A stretch of DNA of 64,000 nt. Origin: Acidobacteriota bacterium. GTDB lineage: Bacteria; Acidobacteriota; UBA890; WLXD01. The position numbers and the translations under genes were made by a program. The notes under the pieces are model-generated. The model was not told the DNA's origin. It saw nothing but the letters and a program-made list of their open reading frames with translations, and made no database searches. Location of the stretch: contig CBDFKD010000002.1 of the NCBI GenBank assembly GCA_965248695.1, positions 2,624,001-2,688,000 of the forward strand, in the 5' to 3' direction. Below are positions 13,346 through 61,007 of this stretch, in pieces (position 1 is the stretch's first letter; each line of letters begins with the position of its first letter).

Positions 13346-15772
13346 TCAGGCACGTAGGGCGCTGTTCGGATCGATGCGTGCCGCACGCGCCGCCGGCAGC
13401 AAGCAAGCAAGCAGGCCGGTCACGGCGAGCACCAGGGTGATCAACGCGTAGATCGACACGTCGCGTGGATCGACCTGGAACAGCACCAACTCGAGGCCGC
13501 CTGCGGCCAGCATCGCGAGTCCGAGCCCCAGCACCAGACCGAAAGCGATCTGCCAGAGCCCCTGTCGCAGGACGAGCCCCAGCACGTGCCCGCTGTTGGC
13601 GCCCAGCGCCATGCGGATGCCGACCTCGGCGGTACGGCGCCGAACCGCAAACGACATCACGCCGTACAGGCCGATCGAAGCAAGGAACAGTGCGACGAAA
13701 CCGAACACCATGAACAGCGATCCGAAGACCCGGAAGAACCAGGTATCGGCCTCGATCTGTGTCTGCAGCGTTTGCACCCAGTAGATCGGCAGGTCGGGAT
13801 CGAGCGCGCTCACCGCCTGGCGCACCGCGCCCGCCTGGCTCAATGGCTCGTCGGCGGTGAGCACCGCGAGGCTCGCGAAGTTGAGGTCGTTCTGCGCCAG
13901 CGCCAGATAGACGCCCTCGGGCCCACGATCACCGAGGTCCCCGACCCCGGGCATCTGCAGATCCGGCGCCACCCCGACTATGGTGAGCCAGGGGTCGTTG
14001 GTGTCGGGATCCGAGCCGAGTCGAAAACGACGCCCGAGAGCGTCTTGGCCGGCGTAGAAACGCTCCGCGAAGCTCGTGTTGACGATCGCAACGGGCAAGC
14101 TCTCGGCGGTGTCCAACTGGTTGAAGTCACGCCCCTGGAGGAGCCGCGCCTCGAAGGTGTCGAAGAGCCCCGGGCCGGTGATGACGGCGCTGGCGCGGGG
14201 GTAGTCTTCGCGGTTCGGGTACGACTCACCTTCGACCGCGAACCGACTCGACCCTGACTGTTGACTGCCCGGCAAGGCTTGGGTGACGACGGCGCCACGG
14301 GCGCCGGGCAGGCCGTCGAGACGACGCTGCAGATCGGCGAAGAACTGGCGGCGCTGCTCCACCTCCGGATAGTCGGCGGCGAAGAGGCCGACCCGGGCAG
14401 TGAGCACGTCGGTCCTGAATCCCAGATCGAGGTTGCTGAGCTGCGCCACGCTCTTGATCATCAAGCCGGCACCGACCAGCAGACCACACGAGAGCGCCAC
14501 CTCGGCCACCACCAGCACCCTGCTAAGGCGTCCCATGCGGAACCCGGAGGAGCCCCGGGATTCATCCTTGAGCACGTCGCTGAGATTCGATCCGGAAACC
14601 TGCAGCGCTGGAACCAGGCCGGCGACCAGACTGGCTATCACCACCACCGCGCTGGTGAACGCCAGCACCACCCAATCGATATCAACCTGGATCCGGTAGG
14701 GCTTCTGAACGCCCGCCAGCGCACTGTTGAACATCACCACGCCGACCTTGGCAACGATCAGTCCGAGGGCGCCCCCGATCGATGCCAGCACCAAGACCTC
14801 AGTCAGGAACTGTGAGATCACTCGCCAGCGGCCCGCCCCCAGCGCCGTACGCACGGCGACTTCCTTGGACCGATCGATGGCGCGTGCGAGCAACAGGTTG
14901 GCGACGTTGGCGCAGGCAATGAGCAGCACCATGAACACCGCTCCCTGCATGGTCCACAACATGACGACCACGGGCTCGTTGAGGTACCTGCGTGTGAACG
15001 GCCTGACGATCGCCCGCACGCCCTCGTTGGTGTCCGGATGGTCCGCCGCGATGCGCGACGCGATCCCATCCATCTCTTCCAGAGCAGCCTCGATGCTGAT
15101 GCCATCGCGAAGTCGTCCCACAGCAGCCAGACCGGTGCCGGTGCCGCGCCCGTCGAGCGCCGCCAGATCGATCGCAAGCGGCAACCACGCCTCCTCGGCC
15201 ATCGGGAAACCGAAGCCCGGCGGCATGACACCGACGATGGTGCCGGGGCGCCCGTTGATGCGCACCGCCGCGCCAACCACGGCCGGATCACTCTGGAACT
15301 GGTTTTCCCACACCTCGTGGCCAATCAGCAGCGCCGGGTCGGCTCCCGGCCGCGCATCTTCAGGCATGAGAGCACGGCCTAGCGCCGGAGCGGCACCGAT
15401 CAACGGGAAGATCGACGGCGTCATGAAGGCGCCATCGAAGCGCAACGGACGCTCACTGCCGCTGACGTTGATCGTGCCCTGATAGTAGGCACCGAACTGC
15501 TCGAAGCTCGTCTGTTGGGCGGCCCAGTCAACGTAGTCGTGCTGAGACACCGCCATCTGGTCGATGCCGAGCGAGGGATTGGTGCGGTCGAGCGCGACGA
15601 TCTCGTGGGCATCCTCGAACGGCAGCTCCGTCAAGGCCCCATGGACGATCGAGTACATCGTGGTGGTCAGGCCAATCCCGAGCGCCAGAGCGAGCACCGA
15701 GATGGCGGAGGTGGTCGGCTGCTTGATCAACATGCGCAACCCGAAGCGGACGTTCTGTACCAAGGTGGCCAT
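13346..15772 (-). CDS. ADOP-type duplicated ABC permease (MacB/FtsX domains, no ATPase)
   Basis: LALGIGLTT, LLIACANVANLLLAR, EVAVRTALGA, GLYGVMSF.V.RRT.EVGIRMALGA. Confidence 0.92.
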   Translation of the reverse strand: MATLVQNVRFGLRMLIKQPTTSAISVLALALGIGLTTTMYSIVHGALTELPFEDAHEIVALDRTNPSLGIDQMAVSQHDYVDWAAQQTSFEQFGAYYQGTINVSGSERPLRFDGAFMTPSIFPLIGAAPALGRALMPEDARPGADPALLIGHEVWENQFQSDPAVVGAAVRINGRPGTIVGVMPPGFGFPMAEEAWLPLAIDLAALDGRGTGTGLAAVGRLRDGISIEAALEEMDGIASRIAADHPDTNEGVRAIVRPFTRRYLNEPVVVMLWTMQGAVFMVLLIACANVANLLLARAIDRSKEVAVRTALGAGRWRVISQFLTEVLVLASIGGALGLIVAKVGVVMFNSALAGVQKPYRIQVDIDWVVLAFTSAVVVIASLVAGLVPALQVSGSNLSDVLKDESRGSSGFRMGRLSRVLVVAEVALSCGLLVGAGLMIKSVAQLSNLDLGFRTDVLTARVGLFAADYPEVEQRRQFFADLQRRLDGLPGARGAVVTQALPGSQQSGSSRFAVEGESYPNREDYPRASAVITGPGLFDTFEARLLQGRDFNQLDTAESLPVAIVNTSFAERFYAGQDALGRRFRLGSDPDTNDPWLTIVGVAPDLQMPGVGDLGDRGPEGVYLALAQNDLNFASLAVLTADEPLSQAGAVRQAVSALDPDLPIYWVQTLQTQIEADTWFFRVFGSLFMVFGFVALFLASIGLYGVMSFAVRRRTAEVGIRMALGANSGHVLGLVLRQGLWQIAFGLVLGLGLAMLAAGGLELVLFQVDPRDVSIYALITLVLAVTGLLACLLPAARAARIDPNSALRA

Positions 15773-45889: not shown

Positions 45890-48570
45890 CTACGGATCCG
45901 TCGGCACGAGCCGCTTCAGCTCCTCAAACCAGTTGAGGACAACGACGATATCCGCAGCTTCCTGGCGGCTCTCCCGAACCATCGCGAACTTCAGACCGTC
46001 TGGCGCGATGTCGAAGTTTCGCCGGATTTCGGCCAGCACGACGTAGTCGCCGCCCAACAATGATCGCGCGGTGCCGGGGCGAAGCTCGGCATCGAAGGAG
46101 ACCGGTACGGTCATCAACCGGTTGGCGCTCGGGCTCCAGAACATGAGCTCAGTTCCGTCGGGTCCCCAAAGCGGCGAGTGCCCACCGTCGCTCGAGATTC
46201 GAATCCGCCTGCCTTCGCCGGAAAACGGAACTACGTACACTTCACTGCCGCCGGACTCATAGGACGTGTAGGCGACCCACTGCCCGTCAGGCGAAAAGTC
46301 CGCGTCTGCGTCGATGAACTCCGTCTGTACAAGCGGGCGTGTCTTGTCCGGCTCCGCCACCGGCCGCACCCAGACGTCCCAGTCGGTGGTGAGACCCTGT
46401 TCCGAGTACAGCAGGAAGCGCCCATCGGCAGAGAACGTAGACGCGTACTGCATGTTGGCGCTGGTTGTCAGAAGTTCGGCCGCAGCACGCCCCGCCGTTG
46501 GCCTTCGGAAGAGGTCCGAATACCCGACCCGATGGGAGCTGAACACCAGACTCTCTCCGTCTGCTGCCCATACCGGGCTGTTGTCGTTGGCAGGATGGGT
46601 GGTGAACCGGTCGGAGGTTTTCCGAGTCAGGTCGTAGACCCAGACGTCATCGTCGATTCCGTAGGCGATCTGTCGACCATCAGGCGAGAAGCGAGGCGCA
46701 ACGAAAGGTCCGGGCTCTAGTTGCAGAGGCTGTTCTTGACCGCGCCGATCAACCAGCACCAAACTGCGATCGTTCGGACGAGTCGGGGTGTAAGCGAGTG
46801 TTCCAACAGCAGAGATATCGAAGAACGCTGAACCGGGCCCGATGCCGGTAACGAATACGTCTTCCACCACAACAACGGCAGAGCCCGTTACCTCGAGTCG
46901 CTGCAGGTCGAAAGGCACCGCTACCAACGAATCCCGCCGCCCCATGATCAGATGCCCGGAGGGAGAGTAGTAGGGGTCCGCTCCTACTACCGGCAGCACG
47001 GTGATCTCCCCGTTCGCCAAAGACAGCAGCGCGACCTCTGACTCGTCGAATCGCTGGCTGACGAGGATGTTGAACACCACTGTCTTGCCGTCCGGCAAAA
47101 CGTGTGGCCAGCGATGAGAGTCCAGGGCGGAATCCACCGTGGTGATAGCCCTGTGCTTTCCCCCTCCCGCAGACACTTGCGTGAGACCGGACGCAAGACC
47201 CGCTGCCAGAATGATCGTGTCGTCCGGAGCCCAGCTCGCGCCGCGCAGGAACTCGACGTCGCCGAGCAACAGCGGTGATCCGCCGGCGACCGAGACCTTT
47301 CAGTAGCTTGTTACCGGCGGCGAACCCGATCCACCGGCCGTCCGGCGAGAAGAAGGGATTGTAGCCACCTTCGGTGCCCGCCAAGGGCGTCGCCGACAGT
47401 TCGCCCAATCGCCTCATGTAGAGCCTGTTCACGCCCGCCTCGAGCGCTGCGTATACGAGGTTCCTACCGTCCGGTGAGATCACTACGGATGAAGGGAATC
47501 CGGCCGACTGCAGCTGCACATACGAGGGCACCTCGACGGTCAACTTGGTGGTCAAAGGTGGCGCCGGCGGCCCGGAGGAGCCTGACGCCGCCATCCAAAC
47601 GGCGATGGCTGTCGCTCCGACCACTGCCGCCGCACTCCGCGTCGGAACAACACCTCGCCATGAGAGCTTCACGGCCTGGTCCGACCCGGCGGGTAGGTCG
47701 AGACGGCCGGCGGGATCCGCGAGCGCGGCGACGATGCCGATGCGTGCGTCGGCGATATCGTGCAGGCGTCCATCGGCGTTCTTGGTCAAGCACTGGCGTA
47801 GCAGAAGCCGGATGAGCGGCGAAGTGTCGGACGGTAGGAAATTCCAGTCAGGTTCCCTTTCGAGAATCGCTACCAAGACATCGCTGACCGTGTCGCCATC
47901 GAAGGCGCGCTTGCCGGTCAGCATTTCGTACAGCACACACCCGAAGGACCAGACGTCGGTGCGCTTGTCCATGGGTCTGCCCCGCGCCTGCTCGGGACTC
48001 TTGTAGCAAGCGGTGCCCATGATCACGCCGGTACCGGTTGCTGCCATGATGGTGGGCGAGTGGCTCCTGTCGGCCGACGTCTCGCCGCCATCGACCGCGT
48101 CGGCCTTGGCGAGCCCGAAGTCGAGCACCTTGACCGTCCCGTCGGCCGTCACCTGCACGTTGGCGGGCTTTAGATCGCGATGAACCACACCGGCCTTGAG
48201 CAGCCTCGAACGCCAGTGCAATCCGGCGGGCGATCTCAATAGCCTCACCGACCTCGATGCGACCGGACGCTGCGATCCGCTCGTCGAGGCTCTGCCCCTC
48301 GACCAGCTCCATGGCGATGAAACGCACGCCGGCGGTCTCATCGAACCCGTGGATGGTGGCGATGTTCGGATGATTCAGCGAGGCGAGCAGCTTGGCCTCG
48401 CGCTCGAAGCGTGCCAGCCGGTCGGCGTCGGCAGCGAAGTCCTCGGGTAGCACCTTGATGGCGACATCACGATCCAGCGTCGTATCGCGCGCTCGGTACA
48501 CCTGCCCCATGCCGCCAGCGCCAAGCTGACCGAGAATCTCGTAGTGGCCGAGTTGCGTACCAGGTTCCAT
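45890..48570 (-). pseudogene. Ser/Thr kinase with TM helix and PD40 propeller, broken by two frameshifts
   Basis: Three ORF pieces join at about 48197 (EAA/KAGVVHRDLKPAN) and about 47299 (NKLLK/VSVAGG); YKSPEQ replaces YMSPEQ; the end VVVLNWFEELKRLVP is typical of this family. Confidence 0.85.
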
Positions 48571-48742: not shown

Positions 48743-51466
48743 TTACTCCGACCGCATCGCCACCAGCGGATCGACCCTCGTTGCGCGCCGTGCCGGCAGG
48801 TAGCTGGCCAACAATCCCGTCGCCGTCAGGATGACAACGATGCCGCCGAACACGACCGGATCGGCCGGCTGCACCTGGAACAAGACGAACGACAGGAGTC
48901 GCCCCAGCCCCACCGCCAGCACCAGTCCCAGGACCGTCCCCACCGCCAGCTGCTGCATTCCCTGCCGCATCACCAGCCGCAGCACGTCGCCGGGGGCAGC
49001 ACCGAGGGCGACACGCAGCCCGACCTCGTGGGTGCGCTGGCTGACCGAGAACGCCAGCACGCCGTAGAGGCCGACGGTCGCGAGGAACAAAGCCGCGGCA
49101 CCGAAGACGGTGAACATGGTGCCGAAGATACGCAGGAACTGCTGCGTGTTTTCGACGGCCGCAGTGAGTGTTGAAACACCGGAAACCGGCAGGTCGGCGT
49201 CGACGGAAGTGACGGCTCTGCGGACGCCATCCGCCAGCTCTAGCGGGTCGCCGCTGGACCGCACAATCAGGCTCGCGGCCGACGACGGCCGTTGAGCGAA
49301 CGGCGTATAGATCGCTTCGTCGTTGAGGATGAAGATCTGCGCGTCGAGGTATAGGTCGGGCACGACGCCGACGATCGTGTACCAGATGTCATCGTTCCGC
49401 TCCGTCTGACCCGATGTGCGCACCCCACGTATCGCCACCCGCCGCCCGACAACCGACGAGGTTGTTGAATGGGTAGCAACGAACGCTTGATTCACGATGG
49501 CCACCGGCATCCCATCGGCATTGTCGGCCAGTGTGAACGCCCGGCCTTCCAGAATCGGGGCCTTCAGACTGGTGAAGTAGTCTGGATCGATAGCGCCTAT
49601 GCGGGCGCTGGGGTAGTCACGATCCGCCTGATAGGTCTGTCCCTCCACCGCATAGCGTCCGTTGTCGGCGCCGACGACGGGGAGATCCGTGCCAATCGAT
49701 GCAGTGGTGGCACCGGGGAGCGCACGCAATCTGATGCCGAGCTCGTCGAAGAACTGGCGTTGGCTTATGCCATCGGGGTAGTCGGCCGGCGGTAGTGCCA
49801 CCTGCGCCGTGAGCAGCCCGTCGACCTCGAATGCGTAGTCGACGTTGGCCAGATTAGTGACGCTGCGCACCATCAGTCCGGCAGCTACGAGCAAGGCGCA
49901 CGAGAAGGCGACCTCCACTACAACCAGGGTGCGGCTGAGCTTGCCAATGCGGAGACTCGAACCGCCGCGTGAGACGTCTTTGAGAACGTCGCTCATGTCG
50001 GTGCCCGACGCCTGCGCGGCGGGCAAGAGCCCGGAAAGGAGACTGGCTGCGAGCGTCAGACCGAACAAGAACAACAGCACGTCGGGGTCGATGCCGATGT
50101 CGACCCAGAACGGCGGCCCGCCAGGGAGTGCCGCGAGCGTCTGGTTGAACCAATCGATTCCGAGCTTGGCCAGCCCAATGCCGACAGCCGCCCCGAGGCT
50201 GGCGATCATCGCCGCCTCGATCAGCAGCTGGCCGAACAACCGCGCCCGACTGGCGCCGAGTGCGCTGCAAACCGCGACCTCCTTGCTGCGCAAGCTGGCG
50301 CGCGCCAGCAACAGGTTGGCGACGTTGGCGCAGGCGATTACGAGCACCAGCGACACAGCTCCGAGCATGGTGAACAGAAACGGTGTGAGCTGATAGCCGA
50401 TGATCTCGCGCACGAACAGGCCCATGATCATCGTCATGCCCTCGTTCGTGTCAGGGTGCTCCTCGCCGAGACGACGCATGATGCGATCGACGTCGCCTTG
50501 CGCCTGCGCCATCGTGACGCCGTCCGCCAGGCGGCCGACCATGGACATGTTCGGACCTTCACTGCGTCGGAGCGCGTCGATATCGACCTGCAACGGTAGC
50601 CACAGCTGCTGGTTGAACGGGAACTCGAAGCCCTCGGGCATCACCCCGATCACCGTCATCGGGGCACCGTTCACCCGCAACGTGCTGCCAACGGCAGCGC
50701 GTTCACCACCCAGGCGGTCCTGCCAGAACCGATACCCCACCACCACCACCGGCGGTCCACCGGCGGCTTCGTCGGCAGCCGTGAAAGTGCGGCCGCGAGC
50801 GGGTGTCACGCGCAGCAGCGGGAACATGTTGGCGGTTACCGATGCGGCAGTGAGAAACTCCGGCTCCTGTCCCGGCGGGCTCACGTTGGCGGGGACGATC
50901 TCCATGCCGGCGAGGGCTTCGAAGGTCGTCTGGCTCTCGACCAGATCGCGATAGTCATGGATGTGACCGATCAGGCGACTGGGCCCCTCGAGCAAGTTCA
51001 CCCGATTGAGCGCCACGAGCTCGTGCGGCTCGTCGAACGGCAGGCCCTTGAGCAGGACGCCGTTGACGATGCTGAACATCGCCGTGGTCAGACCGATTCC
51101 CAGCCCTACAGCCAGGACCGCAATGGCGGCGAGCCCAGGTTTGTGCACCAGTCGGCGGAAGGCGGTTCTCAGATCGGCGAACAGGTTGCTCATCACAGGA
51201 GTTTCCTCGGACTGGGAGGGAATTCGTTGTCGCGTGTATGGCCCATACGTCAGCCAGGCACGGGGTAACGCAAACGCCGAATCACGTAGCAACTCCGCCG
51301 CGAGCCGGCCGGGGCGACGGCCAGCGCGGTACAGCTCGTCGCGACGGGCCGTCATTGCCTCGAGCACGTCCTCGCCGTACCGGCGTCGGAAGCGACGCGG
51401 GTACAGCGCCAGCAGGAGGCGGAGAAGGAGCGGTGGCCGCGTCGCGGCATCAGGCTGCCGGGGCAC
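48743..51466 (-). CDS. ADOP-type duplicated ABC permease with N-terminal prefix domain
   Basis: LLLALYPRRFRRRYGED prefix; LGIGLTT; IACANVANLLLAR; RTHEVGLRVALGA; start overlaps the PadR stop. Confidence 0.92.
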   Translation of the reverse strand: MPRQPDAATRPPLLLRLLLALYPRRFRRRYGEDVLEAMTARRDELYRAGRRPGRLAAELLRDSAFALPRAWLTYGPYTRQRIPSQSEETPVMSNLFADLRTAFRRLVHKPGLAAIAVLAVGLGIGLTTAMFSIVNGVLLKGLPFDEPHELVALNRVNLLEGPSRLIGHIHDYRDLVESQTTFEALAGMEIVPANVSPPGQEPEFLTAASVTANMFPLLRVTPARGRTFTAADEAAGGPPVVVVGYRFWQDRLGGERAAVGSTLRVNGAPMTVIGVMPEGFEFPFNQQLWLPLQVDIDALRRSEGPNMSMVGRLADGVTMAQAQGDVDRIMRRLGEEHPDTNEGMTMIMGLFVREIIGYQLTPFLFTMLGAVSLVLVIACANVANLLLARASLRSKEVAVCSALGASRARLFGQLLIEAAMIASLGAAVGIGLAKLGIDWFNQTLAALPGGPPFWVDIGIDPDVLLFLFGLTLAASLLSGLLPAAQASGTDMSDVLKDVSRGGSSLRIGKLSRTLVVVEVAFSCALLVAAGLMVRSVTNLANVDYAFEVDGLLTAQVALPPADYPDGISQRQFFDELGIRLRALPGATTASIGTDLPVVGADNGRYAVEGQTYQADRDYPSARIGAIDPDYFTSLKAPILEGRAFTLADNADGMPVAIVNQAFVATHSTTSSVVGRRVAIRGVRTSGQTERNDDIWYTIVGVVPDLYLDAQIFILNDEAIYTPFAQRPSSAASLIVRSSGDPLELADGVRRAVTSVDADLPVSGVSTLTAAVENTQQFLRIFGTMFTVFGAAALFLATVGLYGVLAFSVSQRTHEVGLRVALGAAPGDVLRLVMRQGMQQLAVGTVLGLVLAVGLGRLLSFVLFQVQPADPVVFGGIVVILTATGLLASYLPARRATRVDPLVAMRSE

Positions 51467-51804
51467 TACAGAACCCGCTTGGCCCGGGCGAAGCTCAGGA
51501 CCTTGGACAGGGTCTCGGCCTCACGCTCGAGCGTCGAGCGGCCGAGATCGGTGAGTCGGTAGTAGCGCCGGCGGCCATGCGCACCGTCGTCGGGACCGCT
51601 CGACTCCTCGATCAGCCCGGAGTCGGCAAGCCGACCCAGCGACCAGTAGAGCGATCCGGGGCCGAGATCGATGCTGCCGTCGGAGCGCTCGGCAACTTCC
51701 TTGGCCATGGAATAGCCATGCCGCTCGCCGTCCACCAGGGTCAACAGCAGGAAGAAGAACGCCGGGGTGATGCGGATCGATGGATCGGAGCCGGTGGAAG
51801 GCAT
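51466..51804 (-). CDS. PadR-family transcriptional regulator
   Basis: LLTLVDGERHGY, GPGSLY..L.RL...GLI, RRRYYRLT..G. Confidence 0.92.
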   Translation of the reverse strand: MPSTGSDPSIRITPAFFFLLLTLVDGERHGYSMAKEVAERSDGSIDLGPGSLYWSLGRLADSGLIEESSGPDDGAHGRRRYYRLTDLGRSTLEREAETLSKVLSFARAKRVL

Positions 51805-52088: not shown

Positions 52089-52562
52089 ATGGGAGACGTC
52101 GTCTATCGATCGGAGATCGCGCTGACGCGCAACCGCGGTCCGCTGCGCACGGCAACCATGCCCGGAGGTGAGTCGGTGGACTTCGGCGTGCACGGGGCCA
52201 TCGCGGCGCACTATGGCGTCTCGATGGATGACTTCGACCCCGTGAGCACGACGCTCGATTACATCGTTGCCGCCGCCGCCGGCTGAATGACCGGTACCTT
52301 CGGCGGTGCGCTGGAGAAGCGAGGCATAGCGGCAAGTGACGGGAAGCTGCGATCGACCACTGTCGGCGAGATCGAGTCAGAGGGCGGCACCCTGGTGATT
52401 CGTAGAATCCACGTCGGGTATCACCTCGCCGTCGAGGCGGATGCGGATCGCACCGTCGTTGATCGCGTGCTCGACGTCCACGCCGGCGCCTGCCCGGTGT
52501 ATCGCAGCCTGCACCCGCAGATCGAGATCACGGCGTCGCTCGAGCTCGACCCCGCGGGCTGA
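52089..52562 (+). CDS. OsmC-family protein with in-frame UGA (probable selenocysteine)
   Basis: ORFs 52089-52286 and 52287-52562 share one frame. DYIVAAAAG-TGA-MTGTFGGAL puts TGA at the first OsmC cysteine; the second Cys is in ACPVYRSL. Confidence 0.82.
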
Positions 52563-52577: not shown

Positions 52578-53561
52578 TCAGAGCCAGTCCGCCTGGCGGT
52601 ACCACTCGGCGGTGTCAGCGAACCCGCGGGCGGCATCGATGCGCGCCACGTGCCCGATGGCGCGAGCAATCTTGGTAGCGTCGCAGACCAGTCCCGGAGC
52701 GCTGAGCTCGCAGAGGCGATCTCGGTTCAGCAGCGCTGGCCGGCCGGTGACGCGACCGCTGAATTCGCCGATCTCGGCGATCGCCCAGAGCAGCCACCGG
52801 GGCACGGGGAGCGTGCGCACGCGTCGTTTGTACGTCTCGGAGAGCAAGCGGGCAAAATCGAGTTGCCGGACGGGGTCGGCGTGGCCGACGAAGAACGTTT
52901 CGCCGATCACTGCATCGACGCCGGCAAGCCCGGTGTCGCCCACCGCCCGCAGCCCGGCCACCAGATCAGCTACGTGGATGAACGTGTAGGCGGTCTCGGG
53001 ATCGCCGAGCAGCGGACAGAAACCGCGCTTGCCGCCGCGGAAAAGCGCCAGAAAGTCGCGGTCGCGAGGCCCATAGACTCCTGGCGGGCGAACGATCGAG
53101 TACCTAAGCCCCTCGATCTCCATCACCGCCTTTTCGCCGGCCAGCTTGCTCTTTCCGTACAGGCTCAAGGGCGCCGGCTCGTCGTTTTCCGTGCGTGGTC
53201 GCTGCGGCGTGCCGGCGCCCGCCGCCGCCTGGCTCGATACAAGCAGAAAGAACGCACCGCCACGCTGCGCCGCCAGTGCCGCCTGCCGCGCACCCTCGAC
53301 GTTGACCCGGGTGAACGCTTCGTGGTCGGGGGCGCGGGTCAACCCTGCCAGGTGATAGACGATCGCTGCGTCCTCGCAGGCGGACCCCATATCGTCGGCC
53401 TCGAGCTCGCACTCGACGCGTTGAACGCCGTCCGGCAGGGGGTTGGAGCTCGAGGCGCGCACAACGGCTCGCACTCCCCAGTCGGAGTCGCGCAGGCTCT
53501 CGCACAGATTCCAGCCGATGAACCCGGTGCCACCGGTGACAACGGCAATTCTGGCAGTCAT
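52578..53561 (-). CDS. extended SDR / NAD-dependent epimerase-dehydratase, candidate oxo-ceramide or ketosphinganine reductase
   Basis: VTGGTGFIG, HLAG, SS.AA, YGKSK, VYGPRD; last gene of the spt operon. Confidence 0.8.
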   Translation of the reverse strand: MTARIAVVTGGTGFIGWNLCESLRDSDWGVRAVVRASSSNPLPDGVQRVECELEADDMGSACEDAAIVYHLAGLTRAPDHEAFTRVNVEGARQAALAAQRGGAFFLLVSSQAAAGAGTPQRPRTENDEPAPLSLYGKSKLAGEKAVMEIEGLRYSIVRPPGVYGPRDRDFLALFRGGKRGFCPLLGDPETAYTFIHVADLVAGLRAVGDTGLAGVDAVIGETFFVGHADPVRQLDFARLLSETYKRRVRTLPVPRWLLWAIAEIGEFSGRVTGRPALLNRDRLCELSAPGLVCDATKIARAIGHVARIDAARGFADTAEWYRQADWL

Positions 53562-53568
53562 CGTGGCT

Positions 53569-54708
53569 CTACAGCGGCTTTTGGTAGATCCGGTAGGTCT
53601 TGGAGCGCTCGCAGCCGACAAGCTGTATCGCCTTGTTGATGCCGTCGTTGTCTTCCAGCGTCCAGCCGCACTCGCCGCCGCGCCAGCCGAGTCCTTCGAC
53701 GACGCGAATCGAGTGCGCAATCAGAAGCAACTCGAGGCCTTTCTGGCGATGTTCGGCCACTACTCCCAGCAGCATGAGGCGGCATTGGTCGATGATGCTT
53801 TTCTTGCGCAGCAGGTGCAAGAAACCGAACGGCAGCAGGCGCCCGCGCATGCGCTTGAACACCTGGTTGAAGTCGGGAACGGTGAGGCAAAACGCGATCG
53901 GCTTGCCCTCGATCTCCATGATGAGCGCCAGGTCGAAGTTGAGGATCATCTTCATGTCCTTGGCGGTGTGCAGGAACTCCTCCTCGGTCGGCGGCACGAA
54001 GCCCCAGTTGTTCGCCCACGCCTCGGAGAAGATGCGCAAGATTGTCAGCGCGTCCTGCTCGAAGTTCTTCTTGCTCAGCTGGCGGATCGTCGGCCGCGGA
54101 ACCAGCCGCGCTTCGATGCGCTTCAAGATGCGCTCGGAGCGCCGATTGACGCTGGTGTCGATCTCGAACCACCAGGTCCATAGATCCTTCGCCTTGCTAT
54201 AGCCGGCCGACTCCACCCACCCGGGATAGGTCGGTGGGTTGTAGGGTGTCTGAATCAACGGATCGCGATCGAACCGCTCTACGAGCAAGCCCGCCGGATG
54301 GTTGAGCGATGGGTTTGCCGGGCCTCTCAAGGCGTCGCGGCCGCGGCCTGTCGCCCAGCGCTCCGCTGCCTCCAGCAACTTCGCGGCCACCTCGCCGTCC
54401 TCGGCTTCCAGGAAGCCGAAGAACGCCACGTTGTCGCCGTGGATCTCGTTGTGCCGTTCGTCGTCGATGGCGGCAATTCGGCCCACGGCCTCGCCGTCGC
54501 GCAGCGCCAGGTAGAGCTCCATCTCGGCATGACGAAAGAACGGGTTCTTGGCGGTGTTCAGCAGATCCCGTTCGGCGAGGATCAGCGGCGGCACCCAGTG
54601 CGGATCGCCGGCATACAGCCGGAACGGCAGCTTGATGAACGCGTCGCGCTCGCGCTTGGTCGCCACCCGACGGATCGCCACCGCCGGTGAGCCCGTGGCC
54701 TCCGTCAT
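53569..54708 (-). CDS. YghO-like double-GNAT acyltransferase, candidate bacterial ceramide synthase
   Basis: FIKLP..LY.GDPHWVPPL, NPFF.HAE, GRIAAI, FFGF.E, PYNP, NWGFVP, W.LEDN; adjacent to spt. Confidence 0.8.
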   Translation of the reverse strand: MTEATGSPAVAIRRVATKRERDAFIKLPFRLYAGDPHWVPPLILAERDLLNTAKNPFFRHAEMELYLALRDGEAVGRIAAIDDERHNEIHGDNVAFFGFLEAEDGEVAAKLLEAAERWATGRGRDALRGPANPSLNHPAGLLVERFDRDPLIQTPYNPPTYPGWVESAGYSKAKDLWTWWFEIDTSVNRRSERILKRIEARLVPRPTIRQLSKKNFEQDALTILRIFSEAWANNWGFVPPTEEEFLHTAKDMKMILNFDLALIMEIEGKPIAFCLTVPDFNQVFKRMRGRLLPFGFLHLLRKKSIIDQCRLMLLGVVAEHRQKGLELLLIAHSIRVVEGLGWRGGECGWTLEDNDGINKAIQLVGCERSKTYRIYQKPL

Positions 54709-54732
54709 ACGTGTGTAGCGCCTCCGCGGACC

Positions 54733-55965
54733 TTACGCGGCACTGGTGATCACGCCGCGACGACGGCCGGCATCGGCGAATGCGCTCAGCACCGTTTCGA
54801 TCTCCTCGCGTGTATGGCTGGCGTTGACCGCCATGCGGATGAGTGCCTCACCCTCGGGGACCGCTGGCGGCAGCGCCGGCAGGGCGAAGATGCCCGCGTC
54901 CCAGACGTCCTTCCACACCACCATGGCCAAATCGGCGTCGCCGATTGACACCGGCACGATCGGACCCTCCGAGCCGAGCGTGTTGAACCCCAGCCCGCGC
55001 AAACCCTTGCGGAACATCACCACGCGCTTCCACAGCCGCTCTCGATGCTCAGGCTCGCTGGCCAGGATCTCGAGCGCCTTGTGGGTGGTCGCCACCTGGG
55101 CCGGCGGCAACGCGGCGGTGAACACGAACGGGCGCGCCAGACACTTGATGTAGTCGACGATCTCGGCGTTGCCGCCGACGAACCCGCCGACCGATGCGAA
55201 CGCCTTGGAAAACGTACCGATCACCAGGTCGACCTCGTCCTCGAGGCCGAAGTGATCCGGTGTGCCGCGGCCGTTGGGACCGAGAACACCGGTGGAGTGG
55301 GCGTCGTCCACCAGCACTCGCGCGCCGTACCGTCGCGCCAGCTCGACGATCCCCGGCAAATCGGCGATCTCACCGCTCATCGAGAAGACGCCGTCGGTGA
55401 CGATCATCTTGCCCGCGTTGCGTCCGGCGTCGCGCTTCAGCAACGACTCGAGGTGATCCATGTCGCCGTGGCGGTACTTGCGCAGCTGGCCGTACGACAG
55501 CCGCGCCCCGTCATAAAGACTGGCGTGGTTCTCGCGGTCGAAGTACATGATGTCGCGACGACCAACGACAGCGGCCAGCACCCCGAGCGAGCCGAGGAAG
55601 CCGGTGCTGAACGTCAACGCCGCCTCGCGCTTCAGAAAATCCGCCAGGTCTCGCTCGAAGGCCTCGTGGATTCCCAGCGTGCCGTTCAGGAAACGTGAGC
55701 CGGTGCAGCTTGTTCCGAACTCACGCAGCGCCGGCAGGCCGGCGTTCTGTACGCGCTCGTCCTGGCTCAGGCCGAGGTAGTCGTTGGAGCAAGCCATGAC
55801 CATACGGTTGCCATCGACGGTGACCTCGTTGCCTTTCTGCGCTCGAAGCGCCTTGAAGTACGGAAAGAGCCCGATGTCGCGCAGCTCGTTGGCGCGCTGG
55901 TAGTACTTGGAGTCCGACTTGTCGAAGATATCCACCTTCATGGTGGGGATTTCGGCTTGTGCCAT
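54733..55965 (-). CDS. spt: serine palmitoyltransferase-like alpha-oxoamine synthase
   Basis: LFPYF, SNDYLGL, GTSCTGSRFLNGT, NHAS, DGVFSM, DDAH, GTFSK (PLP lysine); neighbours fit sphingolipid rather than biotin synthesis. Confidence 0.8.
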   Translation of the reverse strand: MAQAEIPTMKVDIFDKSDSKYYQRANELRDIGLFPYFKALRAQKGNEVTVDGNRMVMACSNDYLGLSQDERVQNAGLPALREFGTSCTGSRFLNGTLGIHEAFERDLADFLKREAALTFSTGFLGSLGVLAAVVGRRDIMYFDRENHASLYDGARLSYGQLRKYRHGDMDHLESLLKRDAGRNAGKMIVTDGVFSMSGEIADLPGIVELARRYGARVLVDDAHSTGVLGPNGRGTPDHFGLEDEVDLVIGTFSKAFASVGGFVGGNAEIVDYIKCLARPFVFTAALPPAQVATTHKALEILASEPEHRERLWKRVVMFRKGLRGLGFNTLGSEGPIVPVSIGDADLAMVVWKDVWDAGIFALPALPPAVPEGEALIRMAVNASHTREEIETVLSAFADAGRRRGVITSAA

Positions 55966-56081
55966 TTCGGTTCGCTCGCTCGAGGAGAGCGGCGGTAGCC
56001 CGGCACAGCACACACTTCGTGCCGGGCACACCCGTCAGACCCTGGCCTGTTTGACGACGTCTGAGAGCCGCGGAGGCGGAA

Positions 56082-56696
56082 TCAGGAGTCCGTGCGGTAC
56101 TCGTCGATCCGGTCCTGCAGCCGCTGAATGACGTCGTCTACGGTTTCGGTCTTCAGCAGGCGGATAAAGCGGCGGTTCCAACTACGAGCCGTGTCCACGT
56201 CGTCAACGACGTAATTGACGATCAGCCACCGATCCTCGCGTAGCGTGAGCTCGTAGTCGAGGGCAATGTCATCGCCCTCGAAGTAGGCCAGGGTATTGAC
56301 CACCGCTTGCTCGCCGTCGATCTCCTCGTTCAGGTAGTCGAAGCGGTCCGCTCGATAGCGGCCCACCCCCTTTATGGAACGAATGCGTAGCAAATCACCG
56401 AAGACGGCCTTCCACTCACCGCACTTCTCACCGTCGAGCTCGTTGTCCACACAGATCGGATCAATCGCGCCAGTCGACATCGATTCGAAGTCGGTGACGC
56501 CATTCATGACCTCGTAGACACGAGCCTCCCCCGCAGCATCGAGGGGGTCATGCTCGGCGAGAATGGCGGAAATCGCCTCGTTGGACGTACGGACGGTCTC
56601 CATCGGGGTGGTGATTCTTGCCGCGGCCTGGCCAACCGCTATCACGCCCAGAAGGAGCACCGACGCCACGAGACTAGTCGAGGACGACTTGGCCAT
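56082..56696 (-). CDS. MlaC/Ttg2D/HpnM-like periplasmic lipid-binding protein
   Basis: Signal peptide; DF..M; Y..E.IDG..A.V.T; LDY.L......W.I....VDDV.....W...F..LL; start overlaps the TolC 3' end. Confidence 0.8.
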   Translation of the reverse strand: MAKSSSTSLVASVLLLGVIAVGQAAARITTPMETVRTSNEAISAILAEHDPLDAAGEARVYEVMNGVTDFESMSTGAIDPICVDNELDGEKCGEWKAVFGDLLRIRSIKGVGRYRADRFDYLNEEIDGEQAVVNTLAYFEGDDIALDYELTLREDRWLIVNYVVDDVDTARSWNRRFIRLLKTETVDDVIQRLQDRIDEYRTDS

Positions 56697-58098
56697 CAGC
56701 AATCCACTGTAGGTATGAAGAAAGGTCTCCGATAACAAAGGCCAACTCGGCCAAGGAGACCATCAACTCATATTCTCTCTTAACGACCTCGTGCTGTAAA
56801 CGATAGTCGGCGCGGTAGGCCTTGATGAGCGGCTGTGCTTCGCCGATTCCGAGGTCGAAATCATCGCCGGCAGAACGTAGCCAGCGGCGCGTCTCGCGGC
56901 GCGTCTGGCGCGCCGAGGCCAGCAACTCGACGTTCTTGAGCACCCCCTCGAGGGCGCCCACTACCTCGATCTCGACGCTCATCTGCAACGCTAACCTGCG
57001 CGCGTCGGTGGCGTCGCGCTCGATCCGGCGCCTGGCGATATCGAGGTTGTGGCGCGCGAAGTTGAGGTCCCAGCGCATGTTCACCGCGGCGCCGGCACGG
57101 GTGAAATTGAACTCGTCGTAGGCGAACGGGTTCTTCTGGTCGTCGCGCGCCGCGGAGCGCGCAAAGCCGAAGCCACCGCCGATCAGGATCAGCGGCCAGC
57201 GGTTGCTGCGGCTGAGATCCATGGCCTCGTCGAGCGCACCGCTGGCCGCCGCCAGGGCGCGGAGCTGAGGATTGCGCTCGGCGGCGTCTGCCTGCAGAGC
57301 CCGAAGGTCGGCGCGGGTCAGTGCCACCTCAGGCATTCTATCGGCGCGCAGCTCGTAGGCGCTGGAGCTATCGAACCCCATCAGCTTGGCGAGCGCCTCG
57401 AGCAACAAGCGGTGCTTCTGGCGCGTTTCGAGGTAGACCGCGTCCACGTCGTAGCGGCCCGAGCGGATCTCCCAAGCGTCGTTGGGATCGATGTCCCCTT
57501 CATCGAGCTTCTGGTCCGCCTGCTCGATGAGCTCGTCGAAGGCGTCGCGCATGCCCTCGGCGATATCGAACGCGCGGCCCGCCGACAAGGCCCCCCAGTA
57601 GGTGCGTATGACCTCGCGAGACAGCTCGTCGCGGGCACGTTGCTGCTCGGATTCCTTGACGTCGACCACTCCGCGCGCCGCCGCGGTGCCATGGCGTAGC
57701 CGCCCGAATCCGTACACCGGGATGGCAAATCCGATCTGGCCCTTGAAGAACGGGCCCAGATCGTTCAGGTCGCTGGACGTATCGGGGGAGTTGAAGATGT
57801 CACCCCGGGCGCCGGGAACGACACCTGTGTAGCTGTCCAGCTGCACCTCGGGTAACGACCAGAAGCTCTGCCACTGCTTCAGATCGACCTCGGCCCGATC
57901 GACGTCGAGTCGGTGGGCCCGCATCAGCGGGTTCGAGTCGACCGCACGCGCCAGGACGGCGGCTAGCCCGAGACGCGGCGGTGTTCCGGCGGCCGGTTGC
58001 AGCTCCTGGGCGCTGGTGCTCGTGGCCGCCAGCAGCGCGGTCACGGCAACCAGGCTCGCGATGGCGGGTAGCTGGCGCCCGCTCGACTCGGCGCGCAT
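56674..58098 (-). CDS. TolC-family outer membrane factor
   Basis: AGGAG RBS; signal peptide; L...LA.A...NP, two helical repeats, AAERNPQL, RWP. Confidence 0.83.
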   Translation of the reverse strand: MRAESSGRQLPAIASLVAVTALLAATSTSAQELQPAAGTPPRLGLAAVLARAVDSNPLMRAHRLDVDRAEVDLKQWQSFWSLPEVQLDSYTGVVPGARGDIFNSPDTSSDLNDLGPFFKGQIGFAIPVYGFGRLRHGTAAARGVVDVKESEQQRARDELSREVIRTYWGALSAGRAFDIAEGMRDAFDELIEQADQKLDEGDIDPNDAWEIRSGRYDVDAVYLETRQKHRLLLEALAKLMGFDSSSAYELRADRMPEVALTRADLRALQADAAERNPQLRALAAASGALDEAMDLSRSNRWPLILIGGGFGFARSAARDDQKNPFAYDEFNFTRAGAAVNMRWDLNFARHNLDIARRRIERDATDARRLALQMSVEIEVVGALEGVLKNVELLASARQTRRETRRWLRSAGDDFDLGIGEAQPLIKAYRADYRLQHEVVKREYELMVSLAELAFVIGDLSSYLQWIADGQVVLD

Positions 58099-58380
58099 GG
58101 CGTCTCCTGCGGATATGGCTCAGGGGGAGCAATAGGTGTCGGGGGCGGCGACACTAAGCCTAGCATCGCGCCGTCGCCTCGCGGCGCTCGACGCCTAGGC
58201 ACCGCAAGCGCAGGAAAAGCACTCGGGCTTGACGCGTAGGAGCCCTTCCTAGAGCCTTGAGAGGGTGAGCTGCGTGGTCCCAGCGCGACCGACTCCCGTC
58301 ACGACCGCTAGTGGGCTTGGCCTGTCTGCAACCCGCGCCGCCGGTTGGTCGTGCGACCTGCCCGCCCAAGTAATCGGACC

Positions 58381-60813
58381 GTGAGCGACAAGCACCAAAT
58401 CCCGGCTCGTACTGTCCGCGAGCGCACGCTCTTTTACCGTGAGATCCGCGCCGTCTGCCGCTGGTCTCATCGCTACGCGTTTCTCTGGGTGGCGCTGACC
58501 CTGGCGGTCACGGTCCCGGCGTTCATGCGCGCGCAAACGCTCGGTCTCGACTCCGACCTCACCCGGTTGCTTCCGCAGGACAGCCCAGCGGTGCAGTGGA
58601 GTCGAGACCTGGAGCCGCTGGTAGGTGACGGGGGGTATTTCAGCCTGGTCTTCGAGCGGGGTGATCCCCAATCGTTACAGCAAGCGGTTGACGGCACAGC
58701 CAGGCGATTGCAGGGCCTCGACGGGATCACCGATGTCAACTACCGCTACCCGACGGATTTCGTCCAGCGGTACCGCTACGGCCTGATGCCCTCGGACCAG
58801 CTCGAGACCGCCATCGAAACGATCGAGGACTGGGAGGCCGAGGTAAACCCGTTCCTCGACGATCTCGACGATTCGGCGAGCGAGGAGGAGTCCGACCTCG
58901 AGCGCATCGTGGGGCTGTACAGCGAGCTGCCCGAGTACCACCGCGACGCTGACGACACGATGTACGGGATGATCCTCAAGACAAGCGAGGGCCTGACCGA
59001 CCTCTCTGGCCTGCGGGAGCTGTACCTGGAGATCGACCGCGTTGCCGGCGAGGAGTCAGACGCGGCCGGCGTGACGGTGTCCATCGGCGGCTCGCTGCGC
59101 ACGCGGGTGGAAGAGTTCGACGTCATCGTCTCGGATGTTACCCGCACAGGTGCGGTGGCAGCGGCGGCCATCCTGTTGACGCTGGCGATCAGCTTCAGGT
59201 CGGTTCGCGTGCTGCCGGTGCTGCTGTACCCAATCGGCGCCGGCCTGACTTGGGCGTTTGCGCTAGTGCCCGATCTGGTCGGCGACCTGAACACGATCAC
59301 CTCATTCCTGCTGATGGTGTTATTCGGTATGGGGGTCGATTACTCCATTCACCTGGTGAAGCGCTTCCGGCACGAGATCCTGACCAATCCTCCGGACGTC
59401 GCGCTGGCCGAAACGTTCACATCGACCGGACGTTCGGTGATGACATCGGGGCTGACAACCTCGTTCGGACTCTTCATCCTGGCGGTATCCGACTTTCGCG
59501 GCTTCTCGGACTTCGGACTCATCGGCGGCACCGCCATCCTGGTGGTGACGGCGTGCATGCTGCTCGTGATGCCGGCCACGCTGAGCGCCGGCTACCGCCT
59601 CGGCCTGGTTACGCCGAGCGCGCCGCGCTACCCGAGCGCGCGACTTGCGATTCCACCGAGTTGGTCGGCAGCTCTGCTGAGCACGCTGGTGATCATCTCG
59701 GCGTACGCCGCTGCGTTCCTGCTCGAGTTCGACTACGACTTCGCGAACTTCAGCGCCAACCTCGAGGAACTGGACGCCATCCGCGCCAAGCAGGATGAGG
59801 TTTACCCGATCTTTTTCGGTCCGTCGGCCATCTATGTGGCGCGCGACCTCGAGGCGCTCGACCAGATGCTGGCGCTAATCTCCGCCGCCAGGGCAGAGCC
59901 CGAATCGGTGATCGGGCGGGTGGCCAGCGTGCGCGATTTCGCGCCCGACGACCACGAAGTGCAACTGCGACGCGACGCCATCGACCAGATCCAGGAGATG
60001 CTCCGGCGCAGGTGGGTCAACCGCATCGAGGACCCGGAGCGGGTCCGTATCATCGAGGACGTGCGCGACTTCGATATGCCGGACACCTTACCGGCCGTCG
60101 ACGATCTGCCGATTTCGGTGCTGCAGGACATGATCACGCGCGACGGATCTGGCGCCTACATCCTCGGGCTCCACGCTACCGGCCCCGGCAAGGACGGCGT
60201 GACGACCATGATGTTCGCGCGCGAGCTCTACGACCTGGAGCTCCCGGACGGGATCCTCGGACCAACGGGCGACAAACCGGTGCTTGCCGAGATTCTCTGG
60301 CTGGTCACCCGGGAAGGGCCGCTGCTCGTCGTTTTGACGTTCCTAGGCGTGTTCATTCTGGTGGTCATCGACCGGCGCGACGTGAACCAGGCAGCCTGGG
60401 TGCTCGTCCCTCTCGTGGCGAGCCTGTTGCTGACGTTCGGAGCGGTGATCGCACTCGGATGGCGCGTGAACTTCTTCAACATGGTGGTACTGCCCACCCT
60501 GCTCGGTCTCGGCGTCGACCATGGGGTGCACTACTACCGGCGCTGGCGCGAGTTGGAGGGGGATACGGCCGCCACTCAGCTGGAGCTGTTTGAGCCCATC
60601 ACCGTGGCCACCTTGACCACCATAATGGGGTACGCTGGGATGGCGTTCGCGCATCATCCCGGGCTGCGCTCGATCGGACTGCTGGCGGTGGTCGGCCTGC
60701 TGTGCACCTGGCTGACGGCGATGGTGTTGCTTCCCGGTCTGCTGGTCTGGCATCGCGACCTCAGCGAGGACGATCCGGAGCTTCCAGACACCGACGACGC
60801 GCTAGACGTGTAG
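58381..60813 (+). CDS. MMPL/RND-family (HpnN-like) lipid exporter
   Basis: LDSDL..LLP.DSP; duplicated GMGVDYSIHL and GLGVDHGVH motifs; two sets of TM helices. Confidence 0.9.
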   Translation: MSDKHQIPARTVRERTLFYREIRAVCRWSHRYAFLWVALTLAVTVPAFMRAQTLGLDSDLTRLLPQDSPAVQWSRDLEPLVGDGGYFSLVFERGDPQSLQQAVDGTARRLQGLDGITDVNYRYPTDFVQRYRYGLMPSDQLETAIETIEDWEAEVNPFLDDLDDSASEEESDLERIVGLYSELPEYHRDADDTMYGMILKTSEGLTDLSGLRELYLEIDRVAGEESDAAGVTVSIGGSLRTRVEEFDVIVSDVTRTGAVAAAAILLTLAISFRSVRVLPVLLYPIGAGLTWAFALVPDLVGDLNTITSFLLMVLFGMGVDYSIHLVKRFRHEILTNPPDVALAETFTSTGRSVMTSGLTTSFGLFILAVSDFRGFSDFGLIGGTAILVVTACMLLVMPATLSAGYRLGLVTPSAPRYPSARLAIPPSWSAALLSTLVIISAYAAAFLLEFDYDFANFSANLEELDAIRAKQDEVYPIFFGPSAIYVARDLEALDQMLALISAARAEPESVIGRVASVRDFAPDDHEVQLRRDAIDQIQEMLRRRWVNRIEDPERVRIIEDVRDFDMPDTLPAVDDLPISVLQDMITRDGSGAYILGLHATGPGKDGVTTMMFARELYDLELPDGILGPTGDKPVLAEILWLVTREGPLLVVLTFLGVFILVVIDRRDVNQAAWVLVPLVASLLLTFGAVIALGWRVNFFNMVVLPTLLGLGVDHGVHYYRRWRELEGDTAATQLELFEPITVATLTTIMGYAGMAFAHHPGLRSIGLLAVVGLLCTWLTAMVLLPGLLVWHRDLSEDDPELPDTDDALDV

Positions 60814-60932: not shown

Positions 60933-61007
60933 TGGGGCGTCGTCCAATTGGCAAGACATGCGGCTCTGGACCGTAGAATCGGGGTTCGAGTCCCTGCGCC
61001 CCAACCA
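60933..61007 (+). tRNA. tRNA-Gln (anticodon CTG)
   Basis: Acceptor stem TGGGGCG/CGCCCCA, anticodon arm TGCGG-CTCTGGA-CCGTA, GGTTCGAGTCC T-arm, encoded CCA. Confidence 0.96.

Follow-up and report, generated by a model that had tools for sequence, protein, structure and literature searches.

Ceramide-synthesis genes in an Acidobacteriota locus are joined to TolC, MlaC-like and MMPL genes that may form a route to the outer membrane

How do sphingolipids made inside a bacterial cell reach the outer membrane? The question is posed in concrete form by a locus of an Acidobacteriota bacterium in which putative ceramide-synthesis genes lie together with transport genes, at positions 52,578 to 60,813 of a 64,000-nt stretch of DNA (the window, to which gene positions refer) within a 5.76-Mb contig (CBDFKD010000002.1). 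The original prediction, made from the sequence alone, had described a minus-strand run of TolC, MlaC-like, serine palmitoyltransferase-like (Spt-like), double-GNAT and SDR genes divergent from an MMPL gene of the RND type, and had proposed a dedicated sphingolipid export path. On balance, we favor the reading that the locus both makes (dihydro)ceramide and encodes a path of its own by which lipid gets to the outer membrane, with the ceramide made by the adjacent enzymes as the most likely cargo.

All six open reading frames (ORFs) are present and none is interrupted. On the minus strand, with coordinates given from the likely starts, tolC (56674..58098) is followed by the mlaC-like gene (56082..56696), whose start overlaps the tolC stop by 23 nt, and then, after gaps of 116, 24 and 7 nt, by spt (54733..55965), the GNAT gene (53569..54708) and the SDR gene (52578..53561), such that tolC and mlaC stand at the head of a same-strand run continuing into the three enzymes. 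The MMPL gene (58345 or 58381..60813) lies on the plus strand, divergent from tolC at a distance of about 250 nt, and by the gene layout the intergenic region (58099..58344) is presumed to be a shared promoter region; a sigma-70 scan found no site within it, and a promoter/terminator scan stayed at chance level. The layout originally described was borne out, as was the reported lack of hopanoid genes and of a membrane-fusion adaptor: a Pfam scan of the window's 33 main ORFs (shorter and shadow ORFs left out) returned neither, nor did it return MlaFED(B) or MlaA, the partners of the canonical Mla system.

Ceramide synthesis by the Spt, GNAT and SDR proteins is well supported by their homologies. 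The first of these, an alpha-oxoamine synthase (AOS) with an Aminotran_1_2 domain, falls within the Spt clade (support 100/99) in a tree of 13 proteins, with a small reference set that includes neither HemA nor CapA, and approximately unbiased (AU) tests reject both alternative groupings, with BioF at p 2e-5 and with Kbl at p 1e-4. This phylogeny was the check proposed with the original prediction, and the Spt assignment came through it. Among NCBIfam models, which for Spt are taxon-limited, the best match is the Bacteroidetes-type (CFB) Spt at 434.7 bits against a cut-off of 640; no curated Spt cut-off is reached (380 vs 500 and 312 vs 670 for the others), and neither is that of any BioF or Kbl model. 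The top PDB matches are the SPT entries 8guh and 3a2b, at 365 bits vs 288 for AONS/KBL. In columns aligned to Spt rows of known type, the His, Asp-x-x-His and Lys of the pyridoxal phosphate site and the substrate Arg are all kept.

The second enzyme belongs to the YghO family of tandem-GNAT proteins and is a putative bacterial ceramide synthase (bCerS). An alignment spanning the whole protein (383 columns, E 2e-71) gives 33% identity to YghO, whose gene lies in the spt locus of E. coli BL21 and which we take from that position to be a bCerS orthologue. At a 1e-3 threshold Pfam gives 0 matches, a GNAT match near the N terminus is weak (E 0.006), and a PDB sequence search found nothing; its relatives show two GNAT matches, such that the description 'double GNAT' was a reasonable one. 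The third, a CerR-like extended SDR of the Epimerase family and predicted NAD(P)-dependent reductase, shares 29% identity with the SDR encoded at the spt locus of BL21; it is also weakly matched by HpnA and other SDR models, the SDR family being broad, and appears to be the weakest of the three enzyme assignments. Co-location of Spt, bCerS and CerR genes has served as a criterion before (PMC11334938). The closest annotated trio, on a plasmid of Rubrobacter radiotolerans, has the same gene order and identities of 62, 49 and 32% (Spt, bCerS and SDR); its host is a monoderm, and the 12 kb around it carry no annotated TolC, MlaC or MMPL gene. A Streptomyces plasmid carries the same spt-bCerS-SDR trio, again without annotated TolC, MlaC or MMPL genes in its vicinity, and plasmid searches with the transport proteins returned 0 TolC relatives and one weak MMPL. 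These trios of monoderm Actinomycetota plasmids (L084:11908-17500 and L088:5995-10521) are followed by an LTA-synthase-family gene in Rubrobacter and by a condensation-domain gene in Streptomyces.

Turning to the transport genes, the MlaC-like protein (204 aa, with a signal peptide read from its sequence) matches PF05494 at E 2e-12. Its structural model (pLDDT 87.5) is matched by five MlaC/Ttg2D structures at Z 12.7-18.8, the best (Z 18.8) aligning 168 residues at a root-mean-square deviation of 2.7, and the next unrelated fold follows at Z 8.8, identifying it as a periplasmic lipid shuttle by fold. The hopanoid shuttle HpnM was rejected as its identity (31 bits vs a cut-off of 160). The MMPL protein is an HAE3/MMPL-family RND transporter of the ~800-aa type, with two MMPL repeats (E 3e-30) and both GxGxD motifs intact (residues 328 and 721); the membrane Asp pair of MMPL proteins serves as a proton relay. 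It scores 215 bits against the 752 required for the hopanoid exporter HpnN, lies outside the clade of ~920-aa MMPLs that holds all 7 loci with a squalene-hopene cyclase (see below), and reaches 121 bits with the BstA model, far below cut-off; a hopanoid exporter of the HpnN/HpnM kind was rejected. The TolC protein matches the Pfam OEP family (E 5e-33) and begins with a signal peptide that has no lipobox Cys. Its AlphaFold model (pLDDT 84) has the outer-membrane-factor fold, resembling TolC, CusC and OprM at a TM-score of about 0.7 and 13-17% identity.

We then asked whether the linkage of these genes recurs elsewhere. The named close homologues of the window proteins are Acidobacteriota. For 11 of the 34 top bCerS relatives, the longest contig has the same size as that of a TolC or MlaC relative, contigs of 3.9-10.5 kb included; with identical contig sizes taken as a proxy for synteny rather than as a direct view of gene order, the linkage of bCerS to TolC/MlaC appears not to be due to chance and to recur in Acidobacteriota relatives. 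Two Gemmatimonadota loci (L064:1-18514 and L040) cluster spt, acp, acs, bCerS, DAGK, oxidoreductase and DUF3047 genes with TolC, together with MlaC, MMPL, CDP-alcohol transferases and a flippase, and their TolC proteins stand elsewhere in the TolC tree than that of the window. TolC-MlaC is therefore coupled to ceramide synthesis here, in related Acidobacteriota and in two Gemmatimonadota, and probably also in Myxococcus xanthus, a sphingolipid producer. We take spt of M. xanthus to be MXAN_3748 and presume from gene order that MXAN_3745 is the MlaC and MXAN_3747 the bCerS; with this spt, the order is probably the window's tolC, mlaC, ..., MMPL with the enzymes reversed. Published labels list MXAN_3744 as TolC (PMC10196010), MXAN_3746, linked to a sporulation defect, as an oxidoreductase (bioRxiv 10.64898/2026.08.28.747804) and MXAN_3749 as an HAE3 RND protein (PMC3924187, supplement), and the MmpL adjoining spt has been suggested as a sphingolipid transporter (bioRxiv 10.64898/2026.04.12.717747).

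To see the wider context of this TolC, GTDB was scanned with a 37-sequence TolC subset sharing a 7-residue motif, which gave at least 550 confirmed relatives among at least 593 matches. The best 80 loci were kept (39 with more than 9 kb on both sides), a sample that leaves out the window's own close clade, in which the motif differs. These loci come from 11 NCBI phyla, and MlaC is present in 9 of these phyla; 16 loci carry no phylum and three labeled 'Myxococcota' correspond to 'Deltaproteobacteria' labels grouping with Geobacter. After MlaC and DUF3047 had been separated by profiles, MlaC was found within 2.5 kb of TolC in 70 of the 80 loci and within 300 nt in 46; six of the ten loci lacking it have less than 2.5 kb of downstream sequence. 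mlaF-mlaD lies directly upstream of TolC in 26 loci and an MMPL gene within 3 kb in 28 (anywhere in 34), never both at those distances, and 49 of the 70 MlaC loci have either the ABC genes or a near MMPL. An adaptor occurs in two loci, each time beside a separate AcrB and an ordinary TolC. MlaA had 0 matches among 96 family representatives and 125 further neighbor proteins of the 80 loci (114 of 145 listed, the 31 others belonging to families already scanned, plus 11 extras). The 26 ABC-linked loci are mlaE-mlaF-mlaD-tolC(-mlaC) runs (e.g. L030, L026 and L057) with a short MlaD and no linked MlaA, preceded in some cases by hopanoid genes, in Geobacter-like, Nitrospira/Nitrospina-like and Methylomirabilis hosts. 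All 27 MlaD matches are 146-152 aa, a length that probably cannot bridge the periplasm, and such systems would then need both a shuttle and a partner in the outer membrane. These neighborhoods indicate that TolC-MlaC is a general lipid-traffic module, most likely a stand-in for MlaA, which different lineages pair with MlaFED or with hopanoid-type RNDs.

Genes for lipid headgroups are also frequent around these TolC genes. Nucleotidyl- or CDP-alcohol transferases occur in 41 of the 80 loci; CDP-alcohol transferase (31 loci), DUF2141 (3) and DAGK (2) are homologous to genes of the spt locus of Roseomonas, an alphaproteobacterium that carries LptF/G there instead. DUF3047 lies next to TolC in 36 loci and is fused to an MlaC-like domain in several (e.g. 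L051:8616-9893), making it a possible fourth periplasmic component. In a group of 13 loci, a TolC-DUF3047-MlaC set stands with CDP transferases, a flippase, a phosphodiesterase and a radical SAM gene (L032, L033, L039, L041, L044, L048 and L049, with the same set in L052, L053, L056, L061, L067 and L073), and no MMPL or Mla ABC gene was found within the flanks of this group.

The transport proteins also share a history. In each of the TolC and MlaC FastTree trees and a quick tree of MMPL, the window joins the same four loci, L002-L005 (support 99-100), though long branches meet in this grouping and its deep order is unsettled. The TolCs linked to the ABC genes group together (1 change), and MlaC falls into three groups that match the inner-membrane partner (support 83/99/99). 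All 7 cyclase loci have a ~920-aa MMPL (7 of 12 such loci). By contrast, the 22 loci with a short MMPL have MlaC in 22, nucleotidyl- or CDP-alcohol transferases in 20, spt-acp-acs-bCerS-DAGK in 2 and hopanoid genes in 0, two incomplete loci having been assigned manually. The ~800-aa MMPL branch thus travels with ceramide or phospho-headgroup genes.

Within TolC, the window protein belongs to a distinct subfamily with motifs of its own, located in the strands of the barrel and in the two loops that connect them; by TolC topology these loops are extracellular. Conservation of at least 70% is seen at 25 of 89 barrel and loop positions vs 14 of 217 in the periplasmic helices (220 rows), where 80 of the 220 rows had been picked by the 7-residue motif inside the barrel/loop region, inflating 7 of the 25 positions. 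The loop-2 residues R318, N323, P324, D328 and N331 are kept in 121-128 of the 140 unselected rows. A complex prediction of two TolC copies (44-456) with MlaC (30-203) scored 0.24/0.22 vs a mark of 0.32 and, as controls were not folded, is uninformative either way. The four long TolC representatives proved not to be fusions with MlaC; they read through into LPG-synthase transmembrane or PEPCK sequence or hold no further domain, and the long TolC ORFs of the sampled loci are start-codon artefacts.

In the favored reading, by homology, Spt would condense serine with an acyl donor, bCerS would N-acylate the product and the SDR would reduce the 3-keto group. The proton-driven MMPL could then lift the lipid out of the inner membrane, by analogy with HpnN, BstA and MmpL proteins, and the MlaC-fold protein would carry it outward across the periplasm. 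Lastly, as gene context suggests, a specialised TolC trimer without an adaptor may contact the shuttle, receive the lipid and let it pass from the barrel into the outer membrane, the role held elsewhere by MlaA or HpnS.

Is this path dedicated to sphingolipid, as first proposed? The part of that claim that stands is the coupling to ceramide genes at this locus; for the TolC-MlaC module as a whole it fails, since spt/bCerS fall within the fetched flank of only 2 of the 80 loci, both times close to the flank edge, while MlaFED, squalene-hopene cyclase (in hopanoid clusters, 7 loci) and headgroup enzymes are all more frequent. The transport trio could thus be a general exporter of envelope lipids (inositol or other phospholipids, or a hopanoid), with the ceramide genes merely co-regulated and ceramide leaving by Lpt or another route. 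The four closest loci, L002-L005, point the same way, having no spt (0/4) and inositol/CDP headgroup genes or a flippase instead. CDP-alcohol transferases act on glycerolipids too, and headgroup genes are for this reason no proof of a sphingolipid cargo. Enzymes of these types build sphingolipid headgroups in Caulobacter (PMC12275187) and are proposed to build inositol lipids in Bacteroidetes (PMC9246714). Acidobacteriota often make hopanoids (PMC12324291), Caulobacter uses LptF2/G2 with LptB, and the Lpt preprint leaves canonical Lpt possible for both lipids in taxa with a single lptFG (bioRxiv 10.64898/2026.04.12.717747). Against the favored reading also count the different kin of the enzymes (Rubrobacter) and the transport proteins (Aminicenantes, Kapabacteria), as the nearest relatives found being different lineages means that the two sets may have been joined recently, and the M. 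xanthus match, a probable one drawn from published gene labels without a sequence check. A general exporter nevertheless accounts poorly for tolC and mlaC heading the run into spt-bCerS-cerR, for the recurrence of that linkage in Acidobacteriota relatives, in L040/L064 with their distant TolC and probably in M. xanthus, and for an MMPL outside the hopanoid clade. We regard it as unlikely.

A second alternative keeps TolC an ordinary duct that works with an unlinked adaptor and pump to expel sphingoid intermediates or detergent-like lipids, while MMPL and MlaC hand their lipid to another outer-membrane acceptor. TolC proteins often do use adaptors encoded elsewhere, the fold of this one is normal, and the Gly at its second helical tip is conserved in 85% of the 220 rows. 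In one locus (L028), whose flanks show no other TolC, an AcrB gene immediately precedes mlaEFD; four (L008, L013, L015 and L020) have no MlaC despite ample downstream sequence, and in 21 of the 70 loci with MlaC both the ABC genes and an MMPL are missing inside the distance cut-offs, all of which weighs against a TolC-MlaC lipid route. In Veillonella parvula, too, tolC follows mlaEFD without MlaC, a long MlaD forming the bridge (PMC10665443). However, an adaptor is linked to this TolC in 0 of the 80 loci and MlaC in 70, and conservation lies in the barrel and loops rather than in the helices that meet adaptors, such that we judge an ordinary duct to be quite improbable. Least probable of all is an inward module for salvage or for repair of asymmetry, with TolC collecting lipid at the outer membrane or from the medium, MlaC bringing it back and MMPL taking it into the cell: the known direction with MlaFED (26 loci) is inward, but characterised HAE2/HAE3 relatives are lipid exporters and the adjoining genes are biosynthetic.

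The favored reading can be extended, with some hesitation, to the subfamily as a whole. In at least 9 named phyla, these TolCs may have left tripartite efflux to become adaptor-free lipid ports that dock an MlaC-type shuttle and replace MlaA, maintaining lipid asymmetry with MlaFED (Geobacter-like and Nitrospira-like hosts) and providing a non-Lpt sphingolipid route with ~800-aa MMPLs (Myxococcus, Acidobacteriota, Gemmatimonadota). We hold this generalization to be possible, with the odds against it. If true, TolC with a diffusible lipid shuttle in place of an adaptor would put a textbook channel to a new purpose, and it would explain how systems with a short MlaD, MlaC and no linked MlaA reach the outer membrane.

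The flanking genes (OsmC-like, PadR and an M14 peptidase) are unrelated to the locus. Downstream of MMPL, a tRNA-Gln(CTG) lies at 60933-61007 (+), 120 nt past the stop, with no integrase among the ORFs scanned and a flat GC content. The OsmC-like gene (52089-52562, +) has an in-frame TGA at codon 66 and probably encodes a selenoprotein; its OsmC match runs across the TGA and improves on read-through (E 4e-11 vs 2e-6), and a hairpin after the TGA is non-significant (z -0.3). Next after the PadR gene (51466-51804, -) comes a MacB-like ABC permease that has no ATPase (48743-51466, -), a second such permease lies at 13346-15772 (-), and PadR with a MacB-like permease lacking its ATPase is a typical Acidobacteriota pattern. 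A Ser/Thr kinase-PD40 propeller gene (45890-48570, -) is spread over three reading frames, reflecting either a pseudogene or sequence errors.

How does this locus compare with known systems? Its enzymes are homologues of the Spt-bCerS-CerR pathway of Caulobacter and E. coli B, here adjacent and co-oriented, with no acp/acs and no lptF2/G2 beside the trio and an Spt nearest the Rubrobacter plasmid enzyme (62%). The original prediction called the route of sphingolipids to the outer membrane poorly understood; it is indeed largely open, although Caulobacter has been shown to use a route of the Lpt type and the idea of an spt-linked MmpL is in print for M. xanthus. The Caulobacter LptF2G2(C2)-LptB genes, which encode the single characterised route that was found, lie inside the sphingolipid locus, as the transport genes do in the window, and their authors report the route to be absent from myxobacteria and Bacteroidetes; Mla, RND and TolC are unmentioned in the available text (bioRxiv 10.64898/2026.04.12.717747). 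Whereas Caulobacter uses ATP-driven Lpt paralogues, the window has a proton-driven RND protein, a soluble shuttle and TolC, thereby naming a complete alternative to LptF2G2, and with a likely counterpart in the genetically tractable M. xanthus (MXAN_3744-3749) the question is directly testable. BstA-BstB-BstC sterol export follows the same plan of RND, shuttle and acceptor. So does HpnN-HpnM-HpnS, with an MlaC-like HpnM (PMC12324291, TolC being unmentioned in the portion available), although the hopanoid acceptor HpnS is an MlaA-like lipoprotein and the acceptor here would be TolC.

Thus the enzymes, an Lpt-type sphingolipid transporter (in a preprint) and the M. xanthus MmpL proposal are already known, and the TolC-MlaC part is apparently undescribed. 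Full-text literature searches, whose scope excluded most subscription papers, among them a 2025 survey of multiple mlaC copies that may mention it, found neither a TolC and MlaC pairing nor a TolC-MlaC-MMPL module described, and the available portions of PMC5561183, bioRxiv 10.1101/064360, PMC8277102, PMC9386255 and PMC13082787 contain no such pairing. AcrAB-TolC shares the TolC fold, while the window has no adaptor in the scanned ORFs and an HAE3 rather than an HAE1 pump. In TolC-YbjP, a small periplasmic domain docks on the part of TolC that lies between membrane and equatorial domain (PMC13082787), but YbjP is a lipoprotein of another family whose similarity to the MlaC-like model (Z 7.0) is within the chance range. 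The V. parvula mlaEFD-tolC-tamB system has a long MlaD and no MlaC, whereas the 26 TolC-relative loci have a short MlaD plus MlaC, and tolC after mlaEFD has been noted for Negativicutes, which have no MlaC (PMC10665443). Consistent with TolC being present where MlaA is missing from the locus, G. sulfurreducens has an MlaA homologue of the MlaZ type, which is lipase-linked, whereas the mla operon of D. vulgaris includes a true MlaA (PMC10374164). The MlaC-fold shuttle is common to the window and to MlaFEDB-MlaC-MlaA, and these TolC loci have no MlaA. Proteins of the MlaA family work with MlaFEDB (inward) and, as HpnS, with HpnN-HpnM (outward), partnerships that are either established or proposed (PMC12324291), and the window-type TolC shows the same double partnership, in loci without MlaA.

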